Below, one piece after another: positions 1 to 29,900 of a stretch of 64,000 nucleotides of DNA (the stretch's first letter is position 1; every line of letters starts with the position of its first letter). Source of the stretch: Minisyncoccota bacterium (GTDB lineage: Bacteria; Patescibacteriota; Minisyncoccia; Phycocordibacterales; CAIZLB01); contig DASWWM010000013.1 of NCBI GenBank assembly GCA_036405975.1, forward strand, positions 40,649 through 104,648, written 5' to 3'. Under the pieces are notes generated by a model. That model searched no databases. It was not told where the DNA came from and worked only from the letters and a program-made list of their open reading frames with translations. Both the position numbers and the translations under genes were made by a program.

Positions 1-3000
1 CAAGCAGCAGCGCATCAACACAGGTAGGTCTCGGCGCCGGAGCATCGTTCAATTCTGGCAGCTACTACAATACCGCGATTGGCTATTATGCGATGACCAA
101 TACAACGTCATCCAGAAACACAGCTGTCGGATCGGGCGCGCTTCGATTCAATGTCTCTGGAATCTCGAACGTCGCATTCGGTAATGATGCCGCTGGCAGT
201 TCGCTTGCCAGCTACAATGTCGCAATCGGTGATTCTGCCTTGTACAGCGCTACGAGCAGCGGAAGCAATACCGCTGTCGGTCATTCGGCCTTGCTTTATG
301 CTATCGGGTCAGGCAATACGGCTCTCGGATATCTCGCTGGGCAAAACATCACTTCGGGCTCGAACAATATCATCATCGGCAATAACATATATGCGCAAAG
401 TGCCACAGCTTCAAACCAGCTCAGCATCGGCAATATCATCTTCGGTACGGGCGTCGACGGTTCCGGCACAAGCGTATCGTCTGGAAACATAGGAATCGGA
501 ACGACGACTCCCGGCTACAGGCTCGTAGTGTCAGGCGATCTTAATCTCACTGGTGCATTCAGGGCCAACGGTTCGGCTGGTACCGCAGGCATGGTTCTCC
601 AGACGACAGGCACAGGAGCGCAGTGGGTCGCCACTTCGACTCTTGGCATCAGCGGTGGATCGAGTCTTTCGGGAGGCGCCAATGGCTATCTTGCGCGATG
701 GACTTCTGCGACTACGCTTGCGACAAGCTCGGTTCTCGACAGCGGTACGAGAGCGGGAATCAATGCGACATCATCCTCTTATACATTTAACATACAGGGT
801 ACTGCAGGTATCAGTGCCTTCAATGTTGCATCATCCACCGGAACATCGCTGCTCATGGTCGGCGCGGATGGAAATATCGGTATCGGTACGACAACCGCTG
901 CGTCAAAGTTGGTGGTGGTGGGTGATGCATACGTGACAGGATCACTTCGAGTTTCAAACGGTACTTTACCCGTTGTAATTGGCGCGACTGACGGAAATAC
1001 GCGAGCGACAAATGCACTTGATCTTCAGTCATATCGAACGTGGTCATCTCAGGTTGCAAGTGGGGTAAGATCTACAGCTATAGGAAACAGAAACACAGCG
1101 TCTGGTGTAGATTCAATTGCAATCGGACAACTTAACACTCCGTCTGCGCTAGTATCTATCGCTCTCGGTAATAGTAACAGCGCATTCGGAGATTACGCTG
1201 TTGCCATAGGAGCAAGCAATTCTGCCGCAAGCAACTCGCAGGTTATAGGAAAGTTGAATACGGCATTGTACTTAAATTCGTCCGTGGTGGGAATTTCAAA
1301 CACGCTGTACGCGGGTTACTCGCAGGCATTTGGAAATTCGAACAGTCTGTTTGGCCTTACAGGATCAGTCGGTATCGGTACTTCGAACACGGCATATGGC
1401 GGCAACGCGACGATAATCGGGCAGGACAACACCAGTTCCGACGACTACAATGTCACTCTCGGATACAATAACTATGCATTTTCTGGAACGAGCGTGACGA
1501 TCGGCCACAATAATTCGGTTGATAATGGCGTGGGAGGAGGCTCTGATGTCATCACTGTAGGATCCTATAACACTGTTTCGGGCACTTCTTTTTACACATC
1601 AGCATTCGGTTCTTACAATACGATATCAGGCAGTACGTACTACAACGGAGCGTTCGGGTACCAGAACTCCGTCTCTGGAAACAGCTCGTATGCGATCGGA
1701 AGAAGCAATGCTGTGAGCGGCGAAAACTCTTACGTATTCGGTAATGGAATAACAAATGGTATCGGGGGGTCAGTAATGATCGGTACGAGCAATACGAACA
1801 AGATGACCCTTACGACAAATGGTTCGCTTGGCATCGGCACGACGACTCCTGCCTCGAAGCTCACGGTTGTCGGCAATGCCGGCACCTCTCCGATGTTCAC
1901 TGTCGCCTCATCGACTGGTCGAACGGCATTTGTCGTTCGTGCTGATGGCAATGTCGGCATTGGTACATCTACTCCGAATACGAATCTGTATATCGATGCA
2001 AGCTCGGGTACGGGCAATATCGGAGGGTATCAAATGGTGATTGAGGGCTCGCCGACCAATACCGCCCTTCTCGGTTTTAAAGTCGCAAACAATGAATGGT
2101 CGATCGGGGCAAGCAGTCTCGATGAGGATAAGTTCATGATCACATCAAGTCTTGGCTATACTCAGGACGCACTCGTCATTAACAGGAGCACTGGCAATGT
2201 CGGCATAGGATCGTCTACTCCATCTGCCAAACTATCCATCTTTAATCTGAGCGGAAACCAAGACTTGATCAATGTCTCTTCTTCAACTGGAGCGTCGATG
2301 TTCACTGTGAAGGCTTCAGGCAATGTCGGCATCGGAACGACTACTCCGTTCGCTCGTCTGCAGGTCGCGGGAGTAACCACGTCATCGGGAATTCCGTTGC
2401 TCGTCACGGACTCAGCGGGTGCTTCAGTGATTGCTGCTCGAGACAGTGGAACGGTTTCAATAGGAGCCCTATCTGCAGGATTATCAGGTTCGCAGCTCTC
2501 AAAAACCGGCAGCTTGAATGTTTACGGAACCAGCGCAACAATAAACATCGGACATGATTCATTCGATTACGGATACAAAATGGTAATCGGTCCAAGGTCC
2601 ATCACTACTACTGAGACTTCCGAAGATTCAAACGCCACGCTCTTCCTGAATTCAGCTTCGGGGGGACGCGTGAGCATCGGGACTACGACTGATGCCTCCC
2701 CTTATACGCTTCGAGTCGGAGGCGACATCAACTTCGGCGGCAATCTCTATCAGGACGGAGTCCTCTTTACGGGCGGTGGCGGTGCGAGCCCTTGGACCGT
2801 TTCCGGCTCTAAGCTGTATGCCACAAGTACGTCTGTCGGTGTCGGAACAACCAATCCGTTGGCAGCATTTGATATCGGCACTTCGACAAACGGAGTTGGA
2901 ACCATGCAGCCGATGCTTCGGTTCAGCTACACTCCGGATGTCACGTACTCAAGTGCCATCAAGACAAGCACAGGCGGATCGATCGGCCAGAATCAGATGG

Positions 3001-5072
3001 GCTTCTTCATCACGCGTAACGGCACCGAGCTCAACCCGCTTCTCCTGTCAGACAGCGGTATTACGCTTACGGGAACGACTACCGTTGCAGGCATCTTGAA
3101 TCTCAACAGCGCAAATGCCGATACGGGCAAGGCTCTTACGGTGAGGAGCGTGACCAACGATGCACGAGACGGAGGTATCAAGATTGTCGCGCAGAACCAG
3201 AGCCAGTGGATGACGCTCGGTTGGGGCGGGTTGGGAAGCACGTATACGCTGGATTTCTCATCAGGGTCCGGTTCTGACATCACATTTGTCTCAGGCAACA
3301 ATACAGTCTTTTCGACTGGCAATGTGGGCGTAGGGACTACAGCTCCCGATGCGAAGCTCTCCATCATCGGAGGGACAAGCACTCCCGCTTTGAGCATCGC
3401 GACGAGCACAACCGGCATCAAGTTGCTTCACGTTACATCGACGACTACGGGTGTTATGGACTATGCGCGAGTCGGTATCGGAACGACTGGAAACTGGAGC
3501 GGTCCCGACCTTCTCGACCAGCTCACCGTCTCTGGTCGAGTGTACACTACATGGAGATACGCATCGTGTGACCTTGCGGGAATGAGCGTTATCGCGACAC
3601 TTCTTGCGAACACGGCAAACATATGTGGACAGTTCTCATTTGTGGAGGATGCTGACGGAGCGCTCGAGGTAATGACTACGGCGAATCCAAACTATATGAG
3701 GCTTCGAGCCTCAACCGCCGGAAGCCTTGCCGTCGGTGAAGGCGCTTCGCTGCGATCATGGGTCAATTTTGTGTCGACGAATGAGAACCCTATCCTTGAA
3801 GCATGGGTAAGGCCGCAAAGCGGAGTTACGAATGCAAGATACATGGTAGGGTTTATGGATTCCGCTACGGATGTTGCTGCTGACCCTACGAACGGGGTGT
3901 ATTTCAATGCGATTTCTAGCGGAGGAGGGAATTGGTTCGCGGTCAACAGGTCTGGCGGAGTCATGACATTCGTCGACACGGGCGTTGCGATATCGACTAC
4001 CGCATTCCAGAAGCTCCGAGTGGAAACGACGCCGGTCGCCTCGTACTTCTACATTGACGGGGTCCGCGTGGCTACCATAACTGCCGATATTCCAACGGCA
4101 AACATGTCACCGAATGCATCCGTCGCGCTTATTACCACTGCTGATGCGGTCAAGTATTTGGACATATCGCTTATCCGACTTTGGGTTGATGACCCTCTCG
4201 GCGGCTATCTAGCAGGCAACGAAGCGGACACGAACTTGATGAGGATGGCGGCCGGAGCATCGACGACGCTCGAATCTGTTCTCGACAGCGCGTCGACGAC
4301 GGCTGCGGCGAAAGGCCTCGTGACTGAAGCGGTGACGTCACTGTATGACTATGTCATCTCAGGCATCGAGTTCACTGCAGATGTCATTACGCGAAACGTT
4401 GTGGCGCTCAATGCGACAATAAAGAATGTCTTCGCAAGCGTCCTGTCGATCATGCCTGGAGGTTCGATCATCGTGCCGCAAGGAGAGAATCAGATTTCAG
4501 GATCAGCAACGCTTCCGCTCGGAATGACGTCGGTCACGGTCTTAAATTCTTCAGTGCTCGATACGAGCAAGATTCTCGTGACGCCGACGTCGCTCATGTC
4601 GACTCCGCTCATTGTGACGCAGAAGATTCCCGGCGTCGGATTCGTGGTGCAGACCATGAATGCGCAGTCGACGGACGCGACATTCGACTGGGTTATCATC
4701 CAGACATACAAGACCGGCAACGACACCAAGACGACTGGCGGCGCGGTATCGGGCAGCAGCAATGCCGGTTCTGGTGGCGACAACGCGGAGGTTCCGCCAG
4801 GCGGAGACACCCTGGGAGGGGGATCTGGCCAGTCGCCGGCATCGTCGACGCCGGACGGTACGAATCCCCCTGAAGGCGAAGGGTCTGACAGCTCAGGCGG
4901 TACGGGGACAGGCGGGGAAGCAGAGAATCCCGTGACTCCTCCTGCTGAAAATCCATCGGCAGGTGACCAGGATCCCCCTGCGATAGACCCTGCCCCTCTG
5001 CCTGAAATTTCAATGCCTGCTCCAGAGCCGACGGCTCCAAGTGACGGAGACGCGCCTGCTGGACAGTCATAA
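1..5072 (+). CDS. Giant fibre-like surface protein, 5' end outside window (reading frame open from nt 3). More than 20 repeats of a G-N-[IV]-G-I-G-T-[TS]-x-P...KL-x-V consensus, a central jelly-roll/LamG-like segment, and a Pro/Gly/Ser/Glu-rich low-complexity C-terminus.
   Basis: ORF 93..5072 is 1659 aa, and the frame has no stop back to nt 3. Repeated NIGIGTTTP/NVGIGTTNP motifs are visible throughout the translation. Stop codon is TAA. Confidence 0.7.
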   Translation, partial: SSSASTQVGLGAGASFNSGSYYNTAIGYYAMTNTTSSRNTAVGSGALRFNVSGISNVAFGNDAAGSSLASYNVAIGDSALYSATSSGSNTAVGHSALLYAIGSGNTALGYLAGQNITSGSNNIIIGNNIYAQSATASNQLSIGNIIFGTGVDGSGTSVSSGNIGIGTTTPGYRLVVSGDLNLTGAFRANGSAGTAGMVLQTTGTGAQWVATSTLGISGGSSLSGGANGYLARWTSATTLATSSVLDSGTRAGINATSSSYTFNIQGTAGISAFNVASSTGTSLLMVGADGNIGIGTTTAASKLVVVGDAYVTGSLRVSNGTLPVVIGATDGNTRATNALDLQSYRTWSSQVASGVRSTAIGNRNTASGVDSIAIGQLNTPSALVSIALGNSNSAFGDYAVAIGASNSAASNSQVIGKLNTALYLNSSVVGISNTLYAGYSQAFGNSNSLFGLTGSVGIGTSNTAYGGNATIIGQDNTSSDDYNVTLGYNNYAFSGTSVTIGHNNSVDNGVGGGSDVITVGSYNTVSGTSFYTSAFGSYNTISGSTYYNGAFGYQNSVSGNSSYAIGRSNAVSGENSYVFGNGITNGIGGSVMIGTSNTNKMTLTTNGSLGIGTTTPASKLTVVGNAGTSPMFTVASSTGRTAFVVRADGNVGIGTSTPNTNLYIDASSGTGNIGGYQMVIEGSPTNTALLGFKVANNEWSIGASSLDEDKFMITSSLGYTQDALVINRSTGNVGIGSSTPSAKLSIFNLSGNQDLINVSSSTGASMFTVKASGNVGIGTTTPFARLQVAGVTTSSGIPLLVTDSAGASVIAARDSGTVSIGALSAGLSGSQLSKTGSLNVYGTSATINIGHDSFDYGYKMVIGPRSITTTETSEDSNATLFLNSASGGRVSIGTTTDASPYTLRVGGDINFGGNLYQDGVLFTGGGGASPWTVSGSKLYATSTSVGVGTTNPLAAFDIGTSTNGVGTMQPMLRFSYTPDVTYSSAIKTSTGGSIGQNQMGFFITRNGTELNPLLLSDSGITLTGTTTVAGILNLNSANADTGKALTVRSVTNDARDGGIKIVAQNQSQWMTLGWGGLGSTYTLDFSSGSGSDITFVSGNNTVFSTGNVGVGTTAPDAKLSIIGGTSTPALSIATSTTGIKLLHVTSTTTGVMDYARVGIGTTGNWSGPDLLDQLTVSGRVYTTWRYASCDLAGMSVIATLLANTANICGQFSFVEDADGALEVMTTANPNYMRLRASTAGSLAVGEGASLRSWVNFVSTNENPILEAWVRPQSGVTNARYMVGFMDSATDVAADPTNGVYFNAISSGGGNWFAVNRSGGVMTFVDTGVAISTTAFQKLRVETTPVASYFYIDGVRVATITADIPTANMSPNASVALITTADAVKYLDISLIRLWVDDPLGGYLAGNEADTNLMRMAAGASTTLESVLDSASTTAAAKGLVTEAVTSLYDYVISGIEFTADVITRNVVALNATIKNVFASVLSIMPGGSIIVPQGENQISGSATLPLGMTSVTVLNSSVLDTSKILVTPTSLMSTPLIVTQKIPGVGFVVQTMNAQSTDATFDWVIIQTYKTGNDTKTTGGAVSGSSNAGSGGDNAEVPPGGDTLGGGSGQSPASSTPDGTNPPEGEGSDSSGGTGTGGEAENPVTPPAENPSAGDQDPPAIDPAPLPEISMPAPEPTAPSDGDAPAGQS

Positions 5073-5110
5073 AACGCAGCCTCAGAACGAAGCTGCGTTT
5101 TACTTTTTCT
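5073..5110 (+). terminator. Rho-independent terminator after the giant fibre gene
   Basis: Hairpin aacgcagc...gctgcgtt followed by ttactttttc. Confidence 0.5.
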
Positions 5111-5164
5111 TCATAACTAATCAACACGTACTCTCAAGGCTAACGAATGTCCGTGATATAATCA

Positions 5165-5773
5165 GTGGCATATTCATTAGCATGTAACAAAAGAACCATG
5201 ATGTCACCAAAAGAAAAGGAAGCATACAGCGATTCGGTCCAGGCTACGATGGAAGGAACGCCTATTACCATTACAAAAAAAAGAAAGCCTCGGCGATTGC
5301 TCTCGAATCTCCTCACCGTCATCCTTCTTCTTGCCGTAGTCGCCCTCGGATACGGGTATTATCAGAAGCAGAATGAGCTAAAGATGCTCAAGGATCCTGC
5401 CGCTCAGGCAGAAGTGGCCCGAAAGGATGCCATTGCCGTCGCTGCTCAGGCATCAAGCATCGTTCTTCTTCCTGAAGGCGAGGAGGTTCCAGAAGTTCTT
5501 ACCATCAATGATGCGGAGCTTGCAATCAAGGAGCAGCCCAACCTTGCAGGAGTTGTCACGGGAGACAAGATTCTTCTCTACGTAACAAGCGGGAAGGCCA
5601 TCGTGTACAGTCCTTCCAGAAACAAGATCGTGAACATTCTCCCGGTCGTACTTCAGCGACCTCAGGGGCAGGGAACGACAAATACGCAGACAAATACGAG
5701 CGCCAATACGCAGAGCAGCTCAAACGGCACGACGTCTCGAAGCGCGAATACGTCTGCAAACGACGAAGAATAA
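5165..5773 (+). CDS. Hypothetical membrane-anchored protein: basic N-terminus, one TM helix, Thr/Ser/Asn-rich C-terminus.
   Basis: 202-aa ORF with a hydrophobic segment LLSNLLTVILLLAVVALGYGYY. No family recognised. Confidence 0.4.
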   Translation: MAYSLACNKRTMMSPKEKEAYSDSVQATMEGTPITITKKRKPRRLLSNLLTVILLLAVVALGYGYYQKQNELKMLKDPAAQAEVARKDAIAVAAQASSIVLLPEGEEVPEVLTINDAELAIKEQPNLAGVVTGDKILLYVTSGKAIVYSPSRNKIVNILPVVLQRPQGQGTTNTQTNTSANTQSSSNGTTSRSANTSANDEE

Positions 5774-5800
5774 GAGCCGAAAGGCTGATAGGAATGAGAA

Positions 5801-5828
5801 TGCTGCCCCAACCAGGGCAGCATTTTTC
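5801..5828 (+). terminator. Rho-independent terminator
   Basis: Hairpin tgctgccc-caacca-gggcagca followed by tttttc. A TATAAT hexamer follows at about 5841. Confidence 0.5.
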
Positions 5829-5881
5829 TGTTGCATATACTATAATGGGTGCATACCAGTTTAAACCAGTAAAGAAGAACC

Positions 5882-6910
5882 ATGACCCAGAAAAAAGTTG
5901 CCATTAACGGAGCGGGACGAATCGGAAGAGCATTCCTCAAGCTTGCAGTCGAGAATCCTGAACTTCAGGTAGTTGCCATCAATGACCTCGCGGACATTGA
6001 GAACATTGCATACCTCATGAAATACGACAGCGCATACGGAAGAAGCAATCTCGACATCAAGGCCGATAAGGCAAAAGGAGAGCTTGTTATCAATGGCAAT
6101 GTGGTCAAGTATGTAAGCGAAAAGGATCCCGCCTTGCTTCCATGGAAAGACTTGGGCGTGGACATCGTTCTCGAGTCTACGGGACTCTTCACCTCATACG
6201 AGAAGGCGAGCTCACATATGACCGCTGGCGCAAAGCGAGTGGTCATCTCGGCCCCTGCAAAAGACGATGCCGGAGCGCAGCAGGCCGCAACGGTCCTCAT
6301 GGGAATCAATGCCGATGACATGAAGACATGCCCTGTCACTTCGAATGCATCATGCACGACGAATGCGGCGAGCCCGCTCATCTCCATTCTTCATGAGAAG
6401 ATCGGAATCGAGAAGGCGATCCTCAATACGACTCATGCATACACTGCAAGCCAGGCACTTGTCGATGCTCCAAACAAGAAGGACTGGAGGGAAGGAAGGG
6501 CAGCTGCCATGAATATGGCGCCTTCTTCTACTGGTGCGGCTGTGGCAACCACGAAAGTGATAACTGATCTCAAGGGCAAGTTTGATGGAATCGCAGTCCG
6601 CGTTCCGGTGATCACGGGGTCACTTGTGGATGTGACGTTCATTTCGAAGCGACCGACTACGGTCGAAGAGGTAAATGACCTTCTTCGAGCCGCGGCAAAA
6701 GAGTCGCGATGGCAGGGAATCTTCGATGCGACTGATGAGGAGCTCGTATCGCGAGACATTATCGGAAATCCGCACGCATCCATTGCTGACCTTAAAATGA
6801 CTCGAGTTGTTGATGGAAACCTCGTAAAGGTCCTTGCGTGGTATGACAATGAAGGCGGGTACACTCACGCACTTGTCCGACATGTCGTCGATGCGGCAAA
6901 GCTTATTTAA
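5882..6910 (+). CDS. gap: Glyceraldehyde-3-phosphate dehydrogenase (type I)
   Basis: N-terminal Rossmann motif INGAGRIGR and active-site motif SNASCTTN. Confidence 0.9.
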   Translation: MTQKKVAINGAGRIGRAFLKLAVENPELQVVAINDLADIENIAYLMKYDSAYGRSNLDIKADKAKGELVINGNVVKYVSEKDPALLPWKDLGVDIVLESTGLFTSYEKASSHMTAGAKRVVISAPAKDDAGAQQAATVLMGINADDMKTCPVTSNASCTTNAASPLISILHEKIGIEKAILNTTHAYTASQALVDAPNKKDWREGRAAAMNMAPSSTGAAVATTKVITDLKGKFDGIAVRVPVITGSLVDVTFISKRPTTVEEVNDLLRAAAKESRWQGIFDATDEELVSRDIIGNPHASIADLKMTRVVDGNLVKVLAWYDNEGGYTHALVRHVVDAAKLI

Positions 6911-6933
6911 TCTGGATAATTCATCTCAAAAGC

Positions 6934-7251
6934 ATGATTAAACTTGAAGGTCCGGGAATGGATGCTAACAAGATAGAGGAAGAACGAGCGGGCATGTTTC
7001 AGGACATGGAAGGTCCTTTGGCTGAACGGTGGAAAAAGTTCAGCGTCGAGGATCAGGACACAATAGCAAATGCCCTTGCAGAAATAACCGGTGACGGACC
7101 AGGCATAGTCGGTGTGATTTCGGAAGAGAAGGCTGGTCGATTCATTGAGCACCTCAGGACCTATCTCTCCCCGAATTCGTCTGGCGACTTGAAAGAGGCT
7201 GCAGCTGATGCGATCAGGAGAGCTGTCTCGGATGAGGGCATTACAGAGTAG
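6934..7251 (+). CDS. Hypothetical small acidic protein
   Basis: 105-aa ORF between gap and rpiB on the same strand. No recognisable family. Confidence 0.35.
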   Translation: MIKLEGPGMDANKIEEERAGMFQDMEGPLAERWKKFSVEDQDTIANALAEITGDGPGIVGVISEEKAGRFIEHLRTYLSPNSSGDLKEAAADAIRRAVSDEGITE

Positions 7252-7273
7252 TTTCGAGCGTATACACACAATC

Positions 7274-7807
7274 ATGAATGTTTTCATTGGATCAGATCAT
7301 GCAGGGTTCGAGCTCAAGGAGTCTCTGAGGAAGGCGCTTGGGGAAATAGGGTACAGGGTCATAGACTGTGGAGCATTCGCGTATCATCCTGAGGACGACT
7401 ATCCGTTCTTCATTTCGAAGGTGGCGCGAGCCGTCTCAGAGGCTGAAGCTGTCAGGGATTCTGAAGAGAATCTGCCGCATATCGTGGCCGGCGAGCGCGG
7501 AGCAGAAAGCGTGACTCGTGGGATTGTCATCGGTGGCTCAGGTCAGGGGGAGGCGATAGTCGCCAATAAGTTCCCTCACGTTCGCGCCGCTCTCTGTTAC
7601 GGCGGAGAAAGTGCCGGGAAGATCGTCGAGCTTTCAAGGGAGCATAATGATGCAAATGTCCTTTCTCTCGGTGCTCGATTCATCTCGGAGGACCAGGCGC
7701 TTGAGCTTGTCATCAAGTGGCTCAACGCTCCGTTTTCCGGAGATTCGAGACATGTCCGAAGGATCCATGAGATAGAAGAAATAAAGCATAGGCCTCTCTA
7801 CGAATAA
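7274..7807 (+). CDS. rpiB: Ribose-5-phosphate isomerase B (RpiB/LacA/LacB family)
   Basis: N-terminus MNVFIGSDHAGFELKE is typical of RpiB. Start taken at the internal Met at 7274 of ORF 7208..7807. Confidence 0.85.
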   Translation: MNVFIGSDHAGFELKESLRKALGEIGYRVIDCGAFAYHPEDDYPFFISKVARAVSEAEAVRDSEENLPHIVAGERGAESVTRGIVIGGSGQGEAIVANKFPHVRAALCYGGESAGKIVELSREHNDANVLSLGARFISEDQALELVIKWLNAPFSGDSRHVRRIHEIEEIKHRPLYE

Positions 7808-7831
7808 AAAATCAAAGAATCATTTAGCTAC

Positions 7832-8554
7832 ATGAACAAAGAACAAATCACCCACATTATTCCCGCTGTATTTGCAGTCGATTACAACGATTTCGTTGAT
7901 CAGCTCGACTCCATATACGATATCGTCTCGAGAGTTCAGATTGACGTCGTCGACGGATCCTTTGCCACGAAGAAGACGTGGCCTTTTGATGGCGATGCCG
8001 GCCAGGAATTTCCAAAGATCGTCCGGCAGGAACAGGGCTTGCCTCATTGGGAAGAGGTCGAGTTCGAGGTGGACATCATGTCCCAGAATACGGCATTTGT
8101 AGTCGACCAATGGATCGCAGCCGGTGCCTCGAGAGTCATCGTTCACAAAAGGAATGTCACTGACAGCGAATCGCTCTTGAAGATAGCCGAGGCTGTCCGC
8201 GAGAAAGGGGTAGAGTTCATGGTTGCTTTTGAGCCGAAAGAGACGCTTGAATTGATCAAGGATTTTGCCGGCCTCGTCATCGATGGAGGATTTCTCGATG
8301 GGATTCAGGTCATGGGAATCGACAAGGTCGGATTCCAGAATCAGGATTTTAACCCTAAGGCTCTTCAGCTTATTGCAAGCATCAGGAAGGAATGGCCGGA
8401 CATGCCTCTCTCGGTTGACGGAGGGGTGAGCTTCGACAATGCACGGGCGCTGATCGATGCCGGCGCTACTCGACTTGTTTCAGGATCAGCGATCATGCAT
8501 TCCGAGATGCCTCGCGATGCGATCGAGCGGTTTGAGGAGATTTGTCAGGATTAG
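7832..8554 (+). CDS. Ribulose-phosphate 3-epimerase family protein (divergent)
   Basis: Rpe-like blocks: IIPAVFAVDY, IDVVDGSF, WIAAGASRVIVH, SVDGGVS...AGATRLVSGSAI. Sits between rpiB and the transketolase genes. Confidence 0.65.
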   Translation: MNKEQITHIIPAVFAVDYNDFVDQLDSIYDIVSRVQIDVVDGSFATKKTWPFDGDAGQEFPKIVRQEQGLPHWEEVEFEVDIMSQNTAFVVDQWIAAGASRVIVHKRNVTDSESLLKIAEAVREKGVEFMVAFEPKETLELIKDFAGLVIDGGFLDGIQVMGIDKVGFQNQDFNPKALQLIASIRKEWPDMPLSVDGGVSFDNARALIDAGATRLVSGSAIMHSEMPRDAIERFEEICQD

Positions 8555-8593
8555 TCTTTTCGATAATACAGGGTCGGTCTAAGTGAATAAGAT

Positions 8594-8639
8594 GGCCGGC
8601 CGAAGAGACAGAAGTTTTCCACCGTCTCTTCGGCCGGCC
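8594..8639 (+). terminator. Perfect GC-rich hairpin between the Rpe-family gene and transketolase
   Basis: ggccggccgaagagac...gtctcttcggccggcc followed by tttgctat. Confidence 0.4.
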
Positions 8640-8641
8640 AT

Positions 8642-9535
8642 TTGCTATACTGTATTCGTATGTTTCTTACCGACGAACAAGTTCAGGAACTCGAGGCAAA
8701 GGCGAAATCCATTCGCGTAAGCATCATCGAGATGCTGGCCGAAGCAAAGTCAGGCCATCCGGGCGGTCCGCTCGGCATGGCTGACATCTTTGCGGCTCTC
8801 TATTTCAATATACTCAAGCATGATCCGAAGAATCCTGCATGGCCTGAACGCGACCGATTCATCCTCTCAAACGGCCATATCTGTCCCGTACTGTATGCCG
8901 CAATGGCTCACTCTGGATATTTCCCAGTAGAAGAGTTGAAGACACTTCGCAAGTTCGGCTCAAGGCTCCAGGGCCATCCCCACAGGGAATTTCTTCCCGC
9001 ATTGGAAAACAGCTCGGGTCCTCTCGGATCCGGTCTTTCTCAGGCTGTCGGCATGGCCATAGCTGACAAGATCGATCATGGAAAATTGTCGCCTCGCTTC
9101 GTCTATTGCTCGCTCGGCGACGGAGAGCTCAACGAGGGCCAGAACTGGGAGGCCATCATGCTTGCGTCAAAGGAGAAGCTTGGAAACCTTATCGCCATCA
9201 TTGACCGAAACAATATCCAGATTGACGGGTACACGGAAGATGTAATGCCCCTTGCCCCTGTCTATGACAAATGGAAAGCGTTCGGTTGGCATGTGCAGGA
9301 AATCGACGGTCATGACATGCGGGCTATCGTGGGTGCCGTAAGCGAAGCCAAGGCGTCATTCGACAGGCCATCGGTCATCATTGCCCATACCATACCGGGC
9401 AGGGGTGTCTCATACATGGAGAAGCGGTACGAATGGCATGGAACGCCGCCGGGAATATCAGAAGTTTCAGGGGCTCCTGAGAAGGCAAAGCAGGTCGAGG
9501 TTGCACTGGCTGAATTGAAAAATAATAACATCTAA
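8642..9535 (+). CDS. Transketolase, N-terminal subunit (split transketolase, TPP-binding part)
   Basis: GHPGGPLGMADI and GDGELNEGQNWEA motifs. 297 aa. An alternative start exists at 8660. Confidence 0.85.
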   Translation: MLYCIRMFLTDEQVQELEAKAKSIRVSIIEMLAEAKSGHPGGPLGMADIFAALYFNILKHDPKNPAWPERDRFILSNGHICPVLYAAMAHSGYFPVEELKTLRKFGSRLQGHPHREFLPALENSSGPLGSGLSQAVGMAIADKIDHGKLSPRFVYCSLGDGELNEGQNWEAIMLASKEKLGNLIAIIDRNNIQIDGYTEDVMPLAPVYDKWKAFGWHVQEIDGHDMRAIVGAVSEAKASFDRPSVIIAHTIPGRGVSYMEKRYEWHGTPPGISEVSGAPEKAKQVEVALAELKNNNI

Positions 9536-9536
9536 C

Positions 9537-10628
9537 ATGGCGAATCCTAATCAATTTCTCAATCCGAAAATATTCGACGCTGACGTGGATCAGGTTCCCA
9601 TCCGAAAAGGGTTCGGAGAAGGGCTTTTGCTTGCTGCGGAGAGTAACAAGAACATCGTAGGCCTCTGTGCGGACCTTACTGAGTCGACCCAGATGCTTCC
9701 GTTTAAGAAGAAATTTCCGGAGAGGTTTGTCGAAATTGGCATTGCTGAGCAAAACTTGGCATCGGTTGCTTCGGGAATGGCTGCTATGGGAAAAGTGCCA
9801 TTCATCACTTCGTACGCAATGTTCAGCCCTGGAAGAAACTGGGAGCAGATCAGGACGACTGTCGCATACAATGATCGGAAAGTGATCATTGCCGGTTCTC
9901 ATGCCGGCGTATCCGTCGGGCCTGACGGAGGAACGCATCAGGCAATCGAAGATATCGCCATCACTCGAGTCATTCCGAATATGGCAGTTATTGTCCCGTG
10001 CGACGCTCTTGAGGCCAGAAAGGCGACTATCGCGCTCGCTCTCTCAAAGGATGAGGGCGGAATCTCAAGCCCTGCATATCTGCGCCTTGCACGAGAGAAG
10101 ACACCTGTCATTACGACTGAGGATGCCCCTTTTGAGATCGGAAAGGCAAGAGTCGTATACTCGCTGACGGAAGATGAGTTCATGGAGGCGAAATCGGTCA
10201 GGTCTAGCGGCTCACTCACGCTGAAGCTCGACGGAGAGAATAATATCCGTCACGACGTCGGAGTGATCGCATGCGGAGCGCTTCTTCATAAGGCACTGAA
10301 AGTTGCAGAAGCGCTCAAGAAAGAAGGGCTTGCTGTTACTGTTATGAATCTTGCAACTATCAAGCCACTCGACGGTGCCGCCGTACTTCAGCTTGCAGCC
10401 GAGACTGGTGCCATCGTAACTGTCGAGGAACACCAGATTGCAGGAGGAATGGGAAGTGCCGTTGCGGAACTTCTTGCTCAAAACGAACCTGTGCCTATCG
10501 AGTTCGTGGGAGTGCATGACGAGTTTGGCCAATCAGGAACTCCTGACGAGCTCATTGAGAGATACGGCATGGGCGAATCGCATATAAAGGAAGCCATCCA
10601 GAAGGTTCTTGCTCGGAAAAATAAATAG
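9537..10628 (+). CDS. Transketolase, C-terminal subunit
   Basis: Pyrimidine-binding and C-terminal transketolase blocks. Starts 1 nt after the N-terminal subunit's stop codon. Confidence 0.85.
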   Translation: MANPNQFLNPKIFDADVDQVPIRKGFGEGLLLAAESNKNIVGLCADLTESTQMLPFKKKFPERFVEIGIAEQNLASVASGMAAMGKVPFITSYAMFSPGRNWEQIRTTVAYNDRKVIIAGSHAGVSVGPDGGTHQAIEDIAITRVIPNMAVIVPCDALEARKATIALALSKDEGGISSPAYLRLAREKTPVITTEDAPFEIGKARVVYSLTEDEFMEAKSVRSSGSLTLKLDGENNIRHDVGVIACGALLHKALKVAEALKKEGLAVTVMNLATIKPLDGAAVLQLAAETGAIVTVEEHQIAGGMGSAVAELLAQNEPVPIEFVGVHDEFGQSGTPDELIERYGMGESHIKEAIQKVLARKNK

Positions 10629-10632
10629 CATA

Positions 10633-10666
10633 AAAAGGCCCGTCGAGCATTCTCGGCGGGCCTTTT
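10633..10666. terminator. Bidirectional rho-independent terminator between convergent genes
   Basis: aaaaggcccg...cgggcctttt, flanked by a T-run on the + strand and an A-run on the - strand. Confidence 0.5.
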
Positions 10667-10672
10667 CCTGTC

Positions 10673-12376
10673 TTATTTTCGTATGATGTACTTTTCTATC
10701 TCGGCAATGCTGCCGCCAACTTTCTTGTTCGGATTCCAGATGTTCAAGGGGTCGAAGGCGTTCTTGATCTCGACGAACATCTGATATGTCCTGGGTCCAT
10801 AGAAGCCTTTCAGGAAAGGGGACCGGATGATTCCATCGCTGTGGTCCGCACTCATATTTCCTCCGAGCTTGTGCACGAGCTTGAATACAGCTTTGCATAA
10901 TTCCGAAATTTGCCTGACGATGTCCGGCCTGCTGACATCGAAGATCGGAATTACGCGAAGGGCGCCGTCACCGATATGTCCATGGAATCCGTATTTGATA
11001 TTTCTGTTCTTGAGGATTGAGATGAGTTCCGGAATGAATACGTCGAATTTGCGGATCGGAACGATAATGTCCTCGATGCAGGGGATAGCATGGTTGGTTC
11101 CTTGCACGTCATCTCGCATGACGCCGAAGCTTGATCTGCGGATGGTCCAAAGTGCCTGGTATAGGAGCATGTCGGTCACATGCACGGGCGATACCATGCA
11201 GTCGGCCTGCATCCTTACTCGCACTGTCTCGGCGACATCGTGCACTTCTTCTATCGTGTCACCCGCAAACTCTGCGAGAATCATCAGCTCTGTCTCGGCG
11301 CTGAACAGCGTTCGCACCAGGCCGGCCTCAGCCGGCTTGAACTTCTGGGCGCTGTTCAGCGTATTCACGTCAAACGTCTCGACGGACTCGGGCTTATGAG
11401 CCATGATGATTTGCAAAATGCCCGGGAGCTTCGAGAGGGAAGCAACCGGCATGGCGAGAAGGGCATGCGCTTTTCTTGACTCGTTGAGTCTGAGTCGTGC
11501 TTTCGTGATGATCCCGAGAGTCGATTGGCTGCCTACGAAAAGCGGCGCGAGGTTGAGCATTCCTGTCTCCTTGTCGTATACCCGTTCTATTCTGTAGCCT
11601 GAGGCACATTTCGGAACCGGCCGCCTCATGGCCTGGATTTCTCTAGAATATTGCTGGATTATTTTGCCGATCTTTCTGTATATCTGTCCCTCCGCATCAT
11701 CCTTGCTCCTTTTCGATACGAATTCCTCCGGTGAGAGAGGGCCAAATGTGTAGATCTCGCCGTCTGAAAGCACGACATCAACGGATTCAACGTTGTCGAT
11801 CGTTGCGCCGTACAAAATGCTCTTCTCTCCCGACGAGTTGTTTCCGATCATGCCTCCGACGCCGCAGATATCTTTCGATGACGTGTATCCAGAGAAGAAT
11901 AGGTTTCTGGTAAGCATTTCGGCCTCAAGGTCGCGGTACATGACGCCCATCTCGACTTCGGCCATCTTTGCTTCGAAGTCCACCTCGAATGCATTCATGT
12001 ACTTCGTCAGGTTGATGATGATTCCCGTGCTGAGCGAGCCTCCGGACATGCACGTTCCACCCGCTCGCGTCGAGAGGGTAACGGCTGCTTGGTTCAGTTT
12101 CGGTGATCCGATCCTGAGAGACTGGCTAATGGAGTCGACGAGTCTTTTGATGCTGCCGATCGCGCCTTGCCTTTTCATTTCCAATTCATTCACTTTCTTT
12201 GCCAGGATGCGAATCTCGATATTGTTTCTCGGATACACGACGACTTTCGGACGAACGACAAAGGCGCTGGCGTCTCGCGAGTGGAGATCGAGAACTGACT
12301 GGTCCGAAGTGAAGTCGTACTTTTTCTCAGTGAGAAATGCGAGCATTGTCTGAAGTGAATCGGTTGGTATGTTCAT
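10673..12376 (-). CDS. FAD-linked oxidase (GlcD/D-lactate dehydrogenase-like FAD-binding PCMH family)
   Basis: GVGGMIGNNSSGEKSILYGATIDNVESVDVVLSDGEIY FAD-binding block and a C-terminal FAD-oxidase domain. TAA stop. Confidence 0.75.
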   Translation of the reverse strand: MNIPTDSLQTMLAFLTEKKYDFTSDQSVLDLHSRDASAFVVRPKVVVYPRNNIEIRILAKKVNELEMKRQGAIGSIKRLVDSISQSLRIGSPKLNQAAVTLSTRAGGTCMSGGSLSTGIIINLTKYMNAFEVDFEAKMAEVEMGVMYRDLEAEMLTRNLFFSGYTSSKDICGVGGMIGNNSSGEKSILYGATIDNVESVDVVLSDGEIYTFGPLSPEEFVSKRSKDDAEGQIYRKIGKIIQQYSREIQAMRRPVPKCASGYRIERVYDKETGMLNLAPLFVGSQSTLGIITKARLRLNESRKAHALLAMPVASLSKLPGILQIIMAHKPESVETFDVNTLNSAQKFKPAEAGLVRTLFSAETELMILAEFAGDTIEEVHDVAETVRVRMQADCMVSPVHVTDMLLYQALWTIRRSSFGVMRDDVQGTNHAIPCIEDIIVPIRKFDVFIPELISILKNRNIKYGFHGHIGDGALRVIPIFDVSRPDIVRQISELCKAVFKLVHKLGGNMSADHSDGIIRSPFLKGFYGPRTYQMFVEIKNAFDPLNIWNPNKKVGGSIAEIEKYIIRK

Positions 12377-26930: not shown

Positions 26931-29900
26931 ATGTTGTTCTCGGAGGACGAGGTATTTTTTATGCACCCAAAAAAGCGCAAGCCGAATCTGGCCAAAAGGA
27001 TCGCATCTGCGGTCTTGATTGTTGCACTGGCTCTGCCTGCATTGTTTGTAAGCCCTCAGGATGCGAAGGCTGCCGTGCTTGAAGGGTCGGCAAATGCCGC
27101 ATATACGCTTGCGATGGGCCGGGATAAGGGCTTTGACGGTGTCGTTTCCAAGGTGATCTCGCTGTCAGATGGCAGTTTCATCGCAGGGGGATCTTTTGCT
27201 GCATACAATGGCCAGACCGCTCGGAGGCTTGCGAAAATATCCGCTTCCGGCACGCTTGATACTGATTTCAATATAAATTTAGGGACCGGTTTGCCAACGT
27301 CAAATAACGTATCTGACATAGCATTGCAGCCGGACGGCAAGCTGGTCATCATAGGAGGCTTCACCACATTCAATGGCGTAACGACGAACAGGATCATGAG
27401 GCTGAATGCTGATGGAACGAGGGATGCCACATTCTCGATTGGCACGGGGTTGAATGAATTTCCAAGAGAGGTGTCCGTCAGGTCCGACGGAAAGATTGTC
27501 GTTGCGGGAGATTTCACTTCATATAATGGAACGAGCATAAATAGAATAGCTCTCCTGAACGCTGACGGGTCTCTCGATATGGCATTCAGGACCGCGCTTG
27601 GAACTGGTCCGAACGCGCTGCTTACTGCTGCGCATGTGCAGCCTGACCGAAAGATCGTAATAAGCGGAAATTTCACGTCAGTCGCCAGCACCTCTGTCAA
27701 TAGAATTGCCCGGCTTAACGAGGACGGAAGCATCGACTCGGCATTCGTCGCCAATGTCGGTGCCGGAATTCCCTCGAATGCCGGTGCCGTGATCACCCTC
27801 TCTGACGGTCGGATCTTGTTGGGAGGAAGCTTCACGACATTCAATGGGTCCAGTACCGCGAGAGCTGTCAGGCTGAATTCGGACGGCACGATAAATGCGC
27901 TCTTCGCTTCCGGCTTCAACGGTTCGGTGTATGACTTCTTGGAGCTTTCAAACGGGCAGGTGATGGCAGCCGGAGTATTCTCCACTTATAGGGGTGTAAC
28001 AAGAAGGGCGCTTGTGCTCATGAACGAAGACCTCACTGCCGATACTGCTTTTTCTGCAAATATCGGGAGCGGGTTTGTCGGTTCTGATTCTGTGAGCAGC
28101 GTGATTCGCCTGACGGACGGATCATTGGTATTCGCGGGAGGATTCAGCGAGGTATCTGCTCGGCAAATGGGAAACATTCTCAAGACTGATTCGGCCGGAG
28201 TAGTAGACAGGGATTTCGACCCGAACTTCGGATTCGGATTCAATGACCATGTCAGGTCCGCAATCCAGAGGCCGGATGGAAAAATCATATACATGGGAGC
28301 CTTTACTCGATTCTCAGACGAATCCACGAGGCTGAACTCTGCCGTAGAGATGCTCGCACAGTTCGATTCTGCAAATGTACTCGATACGTCATTCGATACG
28401 AATATCGGCACGGGGTTCGAAGGGTCATCGCCTCTCGGGGGTGCATTGCAGCCGGACGGCAAGCTGGTCATCATGGGAGGCTTCACCACATTCAATGGCG
28501 TAACGACGAACAGGATCATTCGCCTCAATGAAGACGGAACAAGGGACGGATCGTTCATCATCGGAACGGGCTTCAACGGCTCGGTTTCCGCCGTCGCTCT
28601 TCAGCCTGACGGAAAAATTATTGCGGGCGGAAATTTCACCACATACCAGGGATCGAGCACTGCCCGTATCGCTCGGTTGAACAGCGATGGCAGCATAGAC
28701 CAGACATTCAGGCAGAATGTCGGAACCGGCGCACCCGGAACGGTCAGCGCAATAGCCGTCCAGTCCGACGGAAAGATCGTGCTTGCCGGAACGTTCACCA
28801 CTTTCAACGGAGTTACTGTGAATAGGGTTGTCAGGCTTGAGTCTGACGGAACCGTCGATGCGACGTTTACCTCGAATGCCGGAACCGCTTTCAGCTCTGG
28901 CGGAGTGGCTGCTCTTGCCCTTCAGTCTGACGGAAAGATCCTTGCTGTCGGTAGTTTCACCTCATACAAAGGTACCTCGGTAGGAGGGGTGGTTCGGATA
29001 AACTCAGACGGAACTTCTGATGCGGACTTCAATCAGAACGTCGGTTCTGGCGCAACGGGCAGCGGTTCTGCAAGTACCGTGCTCGTTCAGCGTGACGGGA
29101 AAGTGGTCGTTGGCGGAGATTTCACGGTTTACAAGTCCGTGATCAGGAATAGGGTGGTGCGGTTGGAAGCAAATGGAACCGTAGATTCCACATTTTCGAC
29201 AAATAACGGCAGCGGTTTTAACTATGCTGCGTACTCGCTCACTCTCCTGAACGATAACAATATATTGGCTGGAGGGAATTTCACGAGATCGGCAGGTACG
29301 TATGCGAACCGCGCATCTCTTCTGTTGGGCCCCGAAATGCCACCGCCGGATGTCCCTCCGCCAACCGACCTGGATGTTTCTTCTGATACGGGAAGGTCGA
29401 GCGTGGACAATATAACTTCTGATACCACCCCGACATTCTCTGGAACGGCATCCACCTCGGCGTCTGTTTATTTGTACGGCGTCGCCACTACGACTGGACT
29501 GATCGGCACTGCCACTGCCGATGGTTCTGGAAATTACTCGGTGACATCCTCTCCTCTGGCCGATGGGACATATTCCATGGTTGTCGTGCAGGAACTATAT
29601 GGCGTGCGTTCCGCAACATCTTCGCCGATCAATGTAACCATTGACGCCACGGCCCCGTCGCTCTTCTCGCTGACTCCGTCAAATGGAGCGACGGGAGTGT
29701 CCGTATCTTCGTCCTTGCGAATCCGGTTGGATGAGAGCATCGCAACGACGTCTGGAACGGCCCGTCTGTACAGGGCTTCTGACGATTTCCTCGTCCAGTC
29801 AGCGTCCACTGCATCAAGCAGCGTATCCATTCAAAGCGGGCACAGTCTCGTATTCCAGCCTTCGCAGAATCTTTCGTATAACACTTCGTACTACGTGCTC

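Follow-up and report, generated by a model that had tools for sequence, protein, structure and literature searches.

A giant fibre protein of Candidatus Paceibacterota as a candidate surface adhesin related to the mosaic adhesive trimeric fibres of Bdellovibrio

What is the giant protein whose gene opens this 64,000-nucleotide stretch of a Minisyncoccota genome (contig DASWWM010000013.1; the whole stretch is called the window hereafter), and how would it serve the cell that makes it? Host attachment in the Candidate Phyla Radiation (CPR), or Patescibacteria, is largely unknown outside the Saccharibacteria, in which type IV pili and unnamed “adhesins” have been implicated (PMC10633639, PMC12206443). 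A preliminary description of the window had read the gene as coding for a surface fibre of GIGTTTP-type repeats with a lectin-like insert and a low-complexity tail. We consider it likely that the protein, called the fibre below, is a secreted, N-terminally anchored, probably homotrimeric surface adhesin of a Candidatus Paceibacterota cell, of the non-S74 type of the mosaic adhesive trimeric (MAT) fibres of Bdellovibrio bacteriovorus (Caulton et al., 2024; PMC10769870).

The open reading frame (ORF) lies on the plus strand in frame 3, is open from window base 3 to the stop codon at 5070-5072 and comprises 1689 codons. No stop codon occurs upstream as far as the 5' edge of the window, and the gene therefore extends beyond it, as had been noticed before. 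A protein search revealed a complete protein of 2182 amino acids (aa), P0001, which matches the window part exactly; the first 493 aa are therefore missing from the window. P0001 corresponds to VGE62_01255 of Candidatus Paceibacterota (one NCBI metagenome-assembled genome) and is encoded in full on two independent Logan assemblies (L001, positions 1212-7760; L002, positions 5415-11963), so that the proposed completion of the gene from upstream sequence was achieved. These two samples carry the exact gene, with no difference between the copies. The 493 aa outside the window contain a signal peptide, an N-terminal domain, a neck and two GIGT modules. GC content is even throughout the window. The features of the gene within the window are as follows (window aa are counted from the first codon in the window).

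3-5072, plus strand: C-terminal 1689 codons and stop codon of the 2182-aa fibre gene (open frame, exact P0001 match).
6-443, plus strand: 'head1', NTAxGxxAL-type repeats, window aa 2-147 (PHROGs, periodicity).
462-992, plus strand: shaft segment A with two GIGT capping-loop motifs at window aa 164 and 293, nucleotides (nt) 492 and 879 (motif scan, hidden Markov model (HMM) count).
981-1808, plus strand: 'head2', a YadA-head-like left-handed beta-roll of 14-residue repeats, window aa 327-602 (Pfam, PDB, autocorrelation).
1809-3533, plus strand: shaft segment B, beta-helix modules bounded by GIGT capping loops (PDB profile, PHROGs, tblastn).
3534-4208, plus strand: concanavalin A-like (ConA-like; SO2946-like_C / LamG-type) beta-sandwich, a putative glycan-binding module (Pfam, AlphaFold2 (AF2), Foldseek).
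4209-4448, plus strand: predicted helical linker, possibly a trimeric coiled coil (AF2, homologue alignment).
4449-4718, plus strand: small C-terminal beta-sandwich related to K1-lyase_C (Pfam, AF2).
4719-5069, plus strand: 117-aa low-complexity tail, probably disordered (composition).

The GIGTTTP-type motif is real. In the window part, 11 copies of the pattern G[IV]G[TS] were counted versus 1.07 expected (2000 shuffles, maximum 6), and eight copies of the extended pattern [GN]x[IVL]G[IV]G[TS]xx[PAT] versus 0.004 expected. Neither the supposed number of at least 20 copies nor an array of roughly 20-residue units was borne out: motif scan and HMM gave 11 strict copies (12-13 relaxed) in the window part and about 14 in the full protein, spaced by 18-164 aa (42 aa between the members of two pairs), and at the DNA level the copies are just 67-73% identical. 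Judged from their sequences, they are anciently diverged modules rather than a tandem array. The capping loops of segment B lie at window aa 610, 652, 734, 776, 891, 946, 964, 1109 and 1158 (nt 1830, 1956, 2202, 2328, 2673, 2838, 2892, 3327 and 3474, respectively).

The PDB was searched with a shaft profile built from P0001 aa 1086-1310 (window aa 593-817) and 12 homologous segments from Patescibacteria. This profile matched Bd2133 (8OND, E 6.6e-20), Bd3182 (8OJN, 8ONB and 8ONC, E 5.1e-12), Bd1334 (8OML, E 2.8e-10; 8ON4, E 3.7e-5) and Bd2439 (8OL4 and 8ONF, E 1.5e-7), the entries being assigned to the Bd proteins from the data statement of PMC10769870, as well as, weakly, the myelin regulatory factor MyRF (7DC3, E 0.61). 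The fibre fold on which the preliminary description had made its surface reading depend is thus supported by homology to solved trimeric beta-helix MAT structures. Moreover, the fibre motifs NVGIGTTTPFARLQ, NVGIGSSTPSAKLS and NIGIGTTTPGYRLV are the same motif as the published MAT capping loops (Supplementary Figure 18 of PMC10769870: Bd2133 NVGIGATAPTAKLE, Bd0884 NVGIGATSPSAKLQ, NVGIGTTTTTEKLN, MyRF RVGINTDRPDEALV), and what had been seen as a “repeat” is therefore the closing loop of each beta-helix module. The region of segment B also matched the PHROGs tail-fibre families phrog_9942 (E 2.1e-12) and phrog_18345 (E 2.2e-9), and, at about 27% identity (E down to 9e-7), tblastn with the shaft found proteins of Pelagibacter phages as well as annotated tail fibres of two cyanophages, S-TIM5 and S-PRM1.

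The motif-bearing shaft is broken up not by a lectin segment, as had been proposed, but by two repeat stretches, 'head1' and 'head2'. Scanned alone (window aa 327-607), 'head2' matched Pfam YadA_head (PF05658; E 4.1e-12, 46.6 bits, cut-off 25) as well as trimeric autotransporter heads among the PDB sequences (9gh4, 9u93 (CbpF) and 3wp8), and its autocorrelation is maximal at lags of 14 and 28. 'head1' strongly matched a virion structural family (phrog_6002, E 7.6e-21) and a tail-spike family (phrog_4636, E 6.4e-15) of PHROGs; its periodicity is about 16-17 and 33 aa, and sequence and profile searches gave no match in Pfam or the PDB. Because of the repeat pattern, a beta-roll fold is assumed for 'head1' as well. 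The earlier statement that such repeats occur in phage and bacterial fibres is supported by the matches to PHROGs, in tblastn and to YadA_head.

P0001 begins with MPYGIFSKKITKF, a hydrophobic stretch (aa 13-37) and PSLASVAEA, followed by ATEINYQGKL. The hydrophobic stretch is the only one in 2182 aa. This N-terminus reads as a Sec signal peptide (aa 1-46) with an A-E-A cleavage site, and the objection that a signal for intracellular localisation might be found therefore does not apply. The following immunoglobulin (Ig)-like N-terminal domain (aa 47 to about 155) gave a confident beta-sandwich model (predicted local distance difference test (pLDDT) 84) and is preceded by a signal peptide in 43 of the 43 fragments found with the domain. 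Among GTDB species-representative genomes it was detected at 388 places; of the best 80, nearly all belong to Patescibacteria. It was not found in 2.9 million viral contigs (IMG/VR) with the patterns used. In three distant relatives (L083, L085 and L086), this domain comes immediately after a cytoplasmic domain and a transmembrane (TM) helix; this supports the N-terminus as the cell-proximal end and, judged from sequence, suggests that one and the same fibre base may be held at the membrane in two ways. The genes of these giant relatives (L083 1436-9763, L085 4183-12600 and L086 2113-4368; more than 2775 aa) have an integrase-SAM-like cytoplasmic segment in place of the signal peptide. Only distant Patescibacteria-like giants, at 26-33% identity, were matched in a metagenome scan with a fragment of Bd2133.

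The ConA-like domain (window aa 1178-1402) lies after the last GIGT motif; the lectin-like segment of the preliminary description is thus a real domain, supported by Pfam and Foldseek, and does not interrupt any array. It matched PF22237 SO2946-like_C (31.9 bits, cut-off 27) and Laminin_G_3 (E 5e-4), and its core was modelled by AF2 at pLDDT 65-91. Foldseek comparison of the AF2 model with the PDB gave ConA-like lectin/glucanase folds in all 50 matches listed, at probability 1.0, including SO2946 (2a5z), GH16 glucanases, calreticulin, BoNT Hc and galectins; profile searches gave no PDB sequence match for this domain or for the terminal sandwich. The only two cysteines of the mature chain (P0001 C1682 and C1701) lie in this domain and are conserved in 59/72 and 64/72 homologous domains, respectively, the pattern to be expected of an extracellular disulphide.

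Behind it, AF2 predicted two helical stretches, model residues 246-268 and 273-319, for which its confidence is low (pLDDT 32-55); this segment aligns with helical linkers of four homologues (P0059, P0066, P0036 and P0009). The terminal sandwich, modelled as six strands (pLDDT 81-92), matched Pfam K1-lyase_C (PF24146; E 3.3e-7, 31.1 bits, cut-off 27), the C-terminal domain of a Klebsiella-phage capsule depolymerase. Finally, the composition of the last 117 aa (G 23, P 20, S 15, A 13, D 10, T 10, E 8) agrees with the acidic, proline-rich low-complexity tail described before.

These distal domains bear on the rival that survives best, a fibre with an enzymatic head, i.e. a tailspike-like depolymerase which would cut capsule or wall polysaccharide of the host by means of the ConA-like and lyase-associated C-terminal domains. 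GH16 beta-glucanases, kappa-carrageenases and PL7 alginate lyases are among the folds matched by Foldseek, K1-lyase_C comes from a phage capsule depolymerase, and 3keto-disac_hyd weakly matches three of the homologous domains. However, the GH16 motif ExDx(x)E was not found in the ConA-like domain, and a GH16-type catalytic site was rejected on this ground. The best family, SO2946-like_C/LamG-type, is not known to be catalytic, and the matches to lectins are just as good. K1-lyase_C is the non-catalytic terminal domain of its enzyme, and no beta-helix lyase domain was detected. A depolymerase is therefore unlikely.

An exhaustive HMMER search with the C-terminal 416 aa gave 1268 clusters (E up to 1e-3). 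The whole cassette of ConA-like domain, helices, sandwich and low-complexity tail is present in P0164, P0165 and P0166 at 43-47% identity, and the terminal sandwich was found in at least 85 clusters listed (representative search). In about 18 of 71 cases the protein ends with the ConA-like domain or no more than 3 residues beyond it, and in most others the domain is followed by about 300-660 residues. A tail rich in P, T, S, G, E and D, typically about 50-200 aa long, follows the sandwich in nearly all of the 85 homologues examined. Low-complexity Pro/Gly/Ser/Thr/acidic tails of about this length also end P0011, P0022, P0023, P0059 and P0164-P0167, after either S74-type or beta-sandwich domains, with the composition kept and the sequence not.

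Two further arrangements of the ConA-like domain were observed. In P0022 (L076) and in L072, it is followed by an S74-like module, which in P0022 has 'AADRNL' where SDxxxK is usual. If this module were cut off, as happens in phage fibres, the mature tip would be formed by the lectin domain, and the case raises the same question of cleavage for the module of helices, sandwich and tail in the fibre. P0215 and P0222/P0313 (271-278 aa) consist of a short N-terminal helix-like segment and a ConA-like domain at the very C-terminus. The gene of one such short protein (L087 10001-10837) lies in a tight one-strand array with glycosyltransferases and a 665-aa Laminin_G_3 protein matching a phage virion structural PHROG; a viral-contig scan with P0215 gave no match.

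How does such a protein vary? The preliminary description had expected variation in the length of the repeat array between strains, whereas the comparison with a related genome revealed replacement of whole shaft and tip segments. The syntenic counterpart P0011 (2540 aa; L003 7863-15486, contig CAZKAF010000002.1) has a signal peptide, N-terminal domain and neck 85-93% identical to those of the fibre, but only the first ~320 aa are common to both proteins. At the DNA level, identity is about 69-73% over the upstream genes and the first ~960 nt of the fibre gene and about 77-78% over the downstream 191-aa ORF and GAPDH, with no alignment across the ~6.9 kb in between. The distal part of P0011 contains LVIVD repeats, Peptidase_S74 (E 2.8e-17) and its own Pro/acidic tail.

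Segment sharing among 119 homologues was uneven, the N-terminal domain being shared by 26, 'head1' by 97, the GIGT region by 93, the ConA-like domain by 2, the terminal sandwich by 8 and the tail by none. Among the 33 complete family genes in the fetched loci (221-2626 aa), 10 end in S74 or S74-like domains, 9 in beta-sandwiches and the rest in other ends; further family genes, of more than 2800 aa, run off the fetched sequence and are outside these 33. With aligned flanks and N-termini, an unaligned body and varied ends, the variation is therefore cassette replacement behind a constant anchor and not a change in repeat number. A diversity-generating retroelement or contingency repeats were rejected, as the window contains no long near-identical DNA repeats and the motif copies are so diverged.

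Such replacement, together with the distal lectin fold, is what would be expected of a diversifying recognition protein, and it argues against the next rival, a fibre with a structural role in the envelope or a role in self-recognition (for example as spacer, glycocalyx, cell-cell cohesion or phage decoy fibre) that would not be a host-recognition adhesin. The envelope is rich in large proteins, the window encoding a second giant surface protein with a peptidoglycan-binding domain, and the disordered tail is like wall-spanning or bristle segments; but the closest characterised relatives of the fibre are receptor-binding fibres of phages and of a predator (PMC10769870). We regard a purely structural role as improbable.

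The MAT-type adhesin would be pictured in five steps. The signal peptide would export the chain, while the Ig-like N-terminal domain would stay beside the cell envelope; it is taken as the cell-proximal end because it is conserved and because relatives carry a true TM anchor before the same domain. The shaft, in a chain that by homology is probably homotrimeric, would consist of beta-helix modules, each closed by an N-V-G-I-G-T-T-T-P-x-x-K-L loop, and of two YadA-like beta-roll inserts. Its length would be about 90-130 nm, scaled from Bd2133 (150 Å for 370 residues) and Bd3182 (about 550 Å; PMC10769870). The distal end would display three ConA-like lectin domains, followed by a helical stalk, the K1-lyase_C-like sandwich and the disordered acidic/Pro-rich tail. 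Binding of a surface glycan on a host or partner cell would then lead to host recognition and attachment, and specificity would change by replacement of shaft and tip behind the constant N-terminal anchor, as seen in the one syntenic pair of genomes. Glycan binding, attachment to a host or partner, retention at the cell surface and, by homology, an adhesive host-recognition role are what we infer for the fibre, a strong candidate for a means of host recognition and adhesion.

Several points weigh against this picture. The trimer is deduced from homology. Overall, the C-terminal AF2 model, built from a 9-sequence alignment, is of middling quality (mean pLDDT 60). Helices, sandwich and tail come after the ConA-like domain, which is not at the very tip. 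A tblastn search of the C-terminal cassette against 50,697 GenBank phage genomes gave no match. As to the retention of the cleaved chain, no LPXTG motif, C-terminal TM segment or wall-binding domain was found in P0001; sortase anchoring was rejected for want of the motif. The MAT-type adhesin is nevertheless preferred, the depolymerase and structural readings, as well as the two that follow, being less likely.

That the gene is a tail-fibre gene of a phage or prophage, or a tailocin fibre, within the chromosome is very improbable. The shaft modules do match phage tail-fibre and tail-spike families, and several homologues are named 'tail fiber domain-containing protein' at NCBI, but P0001 has a Sec-type signal peptide, the N-terminal domain found so often in cellular genomes did not appear in the viral contigs with the patterns used, synteny is kept in the related genome, and no phage genes were found near the gene, whose flanks are housekeeping and surface-protein genes (gatB, surface-protein genes, GAPDH and pentose-phosphate genes). 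Least credible of all is a classical trimeric autotransporter adhesin with type Vc secretion, to which the significant YadA_head repeats, the autotransporter heads among the PDB matches and the name 'trimeric autotransporter adhesin' given by JGI to some homologues would point, since Pfam scans of the whole protein and its segments and a motif search found no YadA anchor or stalk families in P0001 (nor an S74 domain, PF13884, or SDxxxK), the C-terminus is a beta-sandwich with a low-complexity tail and not a beta-barrel anchor, and the conserved end is the N-terminus.

The surroundings of the gene complete the picture of the locus. Downstream, a 191-aa membrane protein, GAPDH, rpiB, rpe and a split transketolase follow in this order, so that the fibre gene does lie upstream of a pentose-phosphate cluster, as had been stated, but not directly, the membrane protein and GAPDH coming first. 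On the other side, the fibre gene is preceded on L002 by gatB and by genes for three small Thr-rich secreted proteins, one TM protein and a 510-aa protein with fn3. Three further features of the window are as follows.

5165-5773, plus strand: 191-aa single-pass membrane protein with a Thr/Asn/Ser-rich tail, directly 3' of the fibre gene.
8642-10628, plus strand: transketolase split into two adjacent genes, the N-terminal half and the pyrimidine-binding plus C-terminal half.
26931-32156, plus strand: second giant secreted protein, 1741 aa, unrelated to the fibre (domain scan).

The DNA of the 191-aa ORF is 77.6% identical in L003, despite the differing bodies of the fibre genes. Just 5' of the window, L002 1301-5359 encodes the three small Thr-rich secreted proteins, which have a common 'WNVKTNNxxGYxL' motif, and proteins of 318 aa and 510 aa (the latter with fn3), each with a C-terminal TM segment. 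No Pfam family except fn3 was found in the proteins of this cluster, which is kept in synteny in L003 and may be another surface assembly. The 1741-aa protein has a signal peptide, ten DUF5122 beta-propeller repeats (E 7e-138), three Big_13 domains, Big_5 and fn3-like domains and a C-terminal PG_binding_1 domain, which suggests wall anchoring; unlike this protein, the fibre has no peptidoglycan-binding domain.

What would the fibre mean beyond this genome? Its sequence homology to crystallised proteins links a widespread Patescibacteria family with the fibres by which Bdellovibrio recognises prey and with the receptor-binding proteins of phages, and the fibre offers a concrete candidate for host specificity, with a lectin-fold tip, swappable tips and a conserved anchor. 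This suggests that predators, episymbionts and phages draw on one common pool of fibre modules. As a tentative proposal, for which we hold the odds to be rather below even, fibres descended from phage receptor-binding proteins and anchored by their N-terminus might form a very large family in hundreds of Patescibacteria species, on genes of up to more than 2800 aa. Their shaft-and-tip cassettes (S74-type, ConA-like, beta-sandwich, beta-propeller and others) would be exchanged behind a constant anchor domain, even between close relatives at one syntenic locus, and the fibres would act as host-range determinants of CPR episymbionts; if true, these fibres would be the cellular counterpart of phage receptor-binding proteins and of the Bdellovibrio MATs. 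No paper linking Patescibacteria to the MAT work was found in the literature library searched.

Among known systems, the MAT fibres are the closest. They are trimeric, form an intertwined beta-helix and are displayed on the surface of the predator; a conserved, beta-rich N-terminal domain of ~130 aa follows the signal peptide, and the chain ends in an S74 chaperone/protease or, in its place, a swapped binding domain (PMC10769870). The non-S74 subgroup comprises Bd2133, Bd1334, Bd2439, Bd2740 and Bd3442, with a B30.2/SPRY tip in Bd3442 and a C-type lectin tip in Bd2740 (PMC10769870). The fibre resembles them in its shaft of beta-helix modules with the NVGIGxTxPxxKL capping loop, homologous to four solved MAT structures, and in the interchangeable C-terminal end, which is an S74 chaperone in P0011 and a lectin-type fold in the fibre. 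It differs in its host lineage, Patescibacteria, which is not in the published survey of MATs outside Bdellovibrio (Oligoflexia, PVC, Alpha- and Deltaproteobacteria, FCB group and Omnitrophica; PMC10769870). Moreover, it is longer (2182 aa versus 626-1959 aa), its shaft carries two YadA-like beta-roll inserts, and behind its lectin domain it continues with helices, a K1-lyase_C-like sandwich and a long, probably disordered tail. The beta-rich domain directly behind its signal peptide is of a Patescibacteria-wide type, which may or may not be related to the N-terminal domain in Bdellovibrio. Patescibacteria are, furthermore, generally held to have no outer membrane.

To the phage S74 fibres (K1F endosialidase, T5 pb1) and the tail fibres of the cyanophages S-TIM5 and S-PRM1 the fibre is related by its shaft modules and 'head1', which match phage families, and many Patescibacteria homologues, including the syntenic P0011, end in Peptidase_S74. 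However, neither an S74 domain nor SDxxxK was found in the fibre itself; in place of a baseplate-attachment domain it has a signal peptide and an N-terminal domain of cellular type, and its gene has housekeeping neighbours. With YadA, CbpF of Fusobacterium and Ata of Acinetobacter it has in common the 14-residue YadA-head repeats, the left-handed beta-roll and the concept of a trimeric fibre adhesin, whereas it lacks a C-terminal membrane anchor and type Vc secretion and has the reversed polarity, with the N-terminus as the conserved, cell-proximal end. Membership of the fibre among the autotransporters or the phage S74 fibres thus fails on a defining feature in each case. Its lectin domain resembles SO2946-like_C / LamG-type domains (PDB 2a5z) in scoring above the Pfam cut-off and in having the same fold, and differs from them in being embedded near the fibre end and in its conserved, disulphide-capable cysteine pair. 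MAT and phage receptor-binding fibres are already known as a kind, and relatives of the fibre are labelled “tail fiber domain-containing” in databases; what sets the fibre apart is the lineage, the size, the YadA-like inserts, the C-terminal cassette and the Patescibacteria-wide N-terminal domain.

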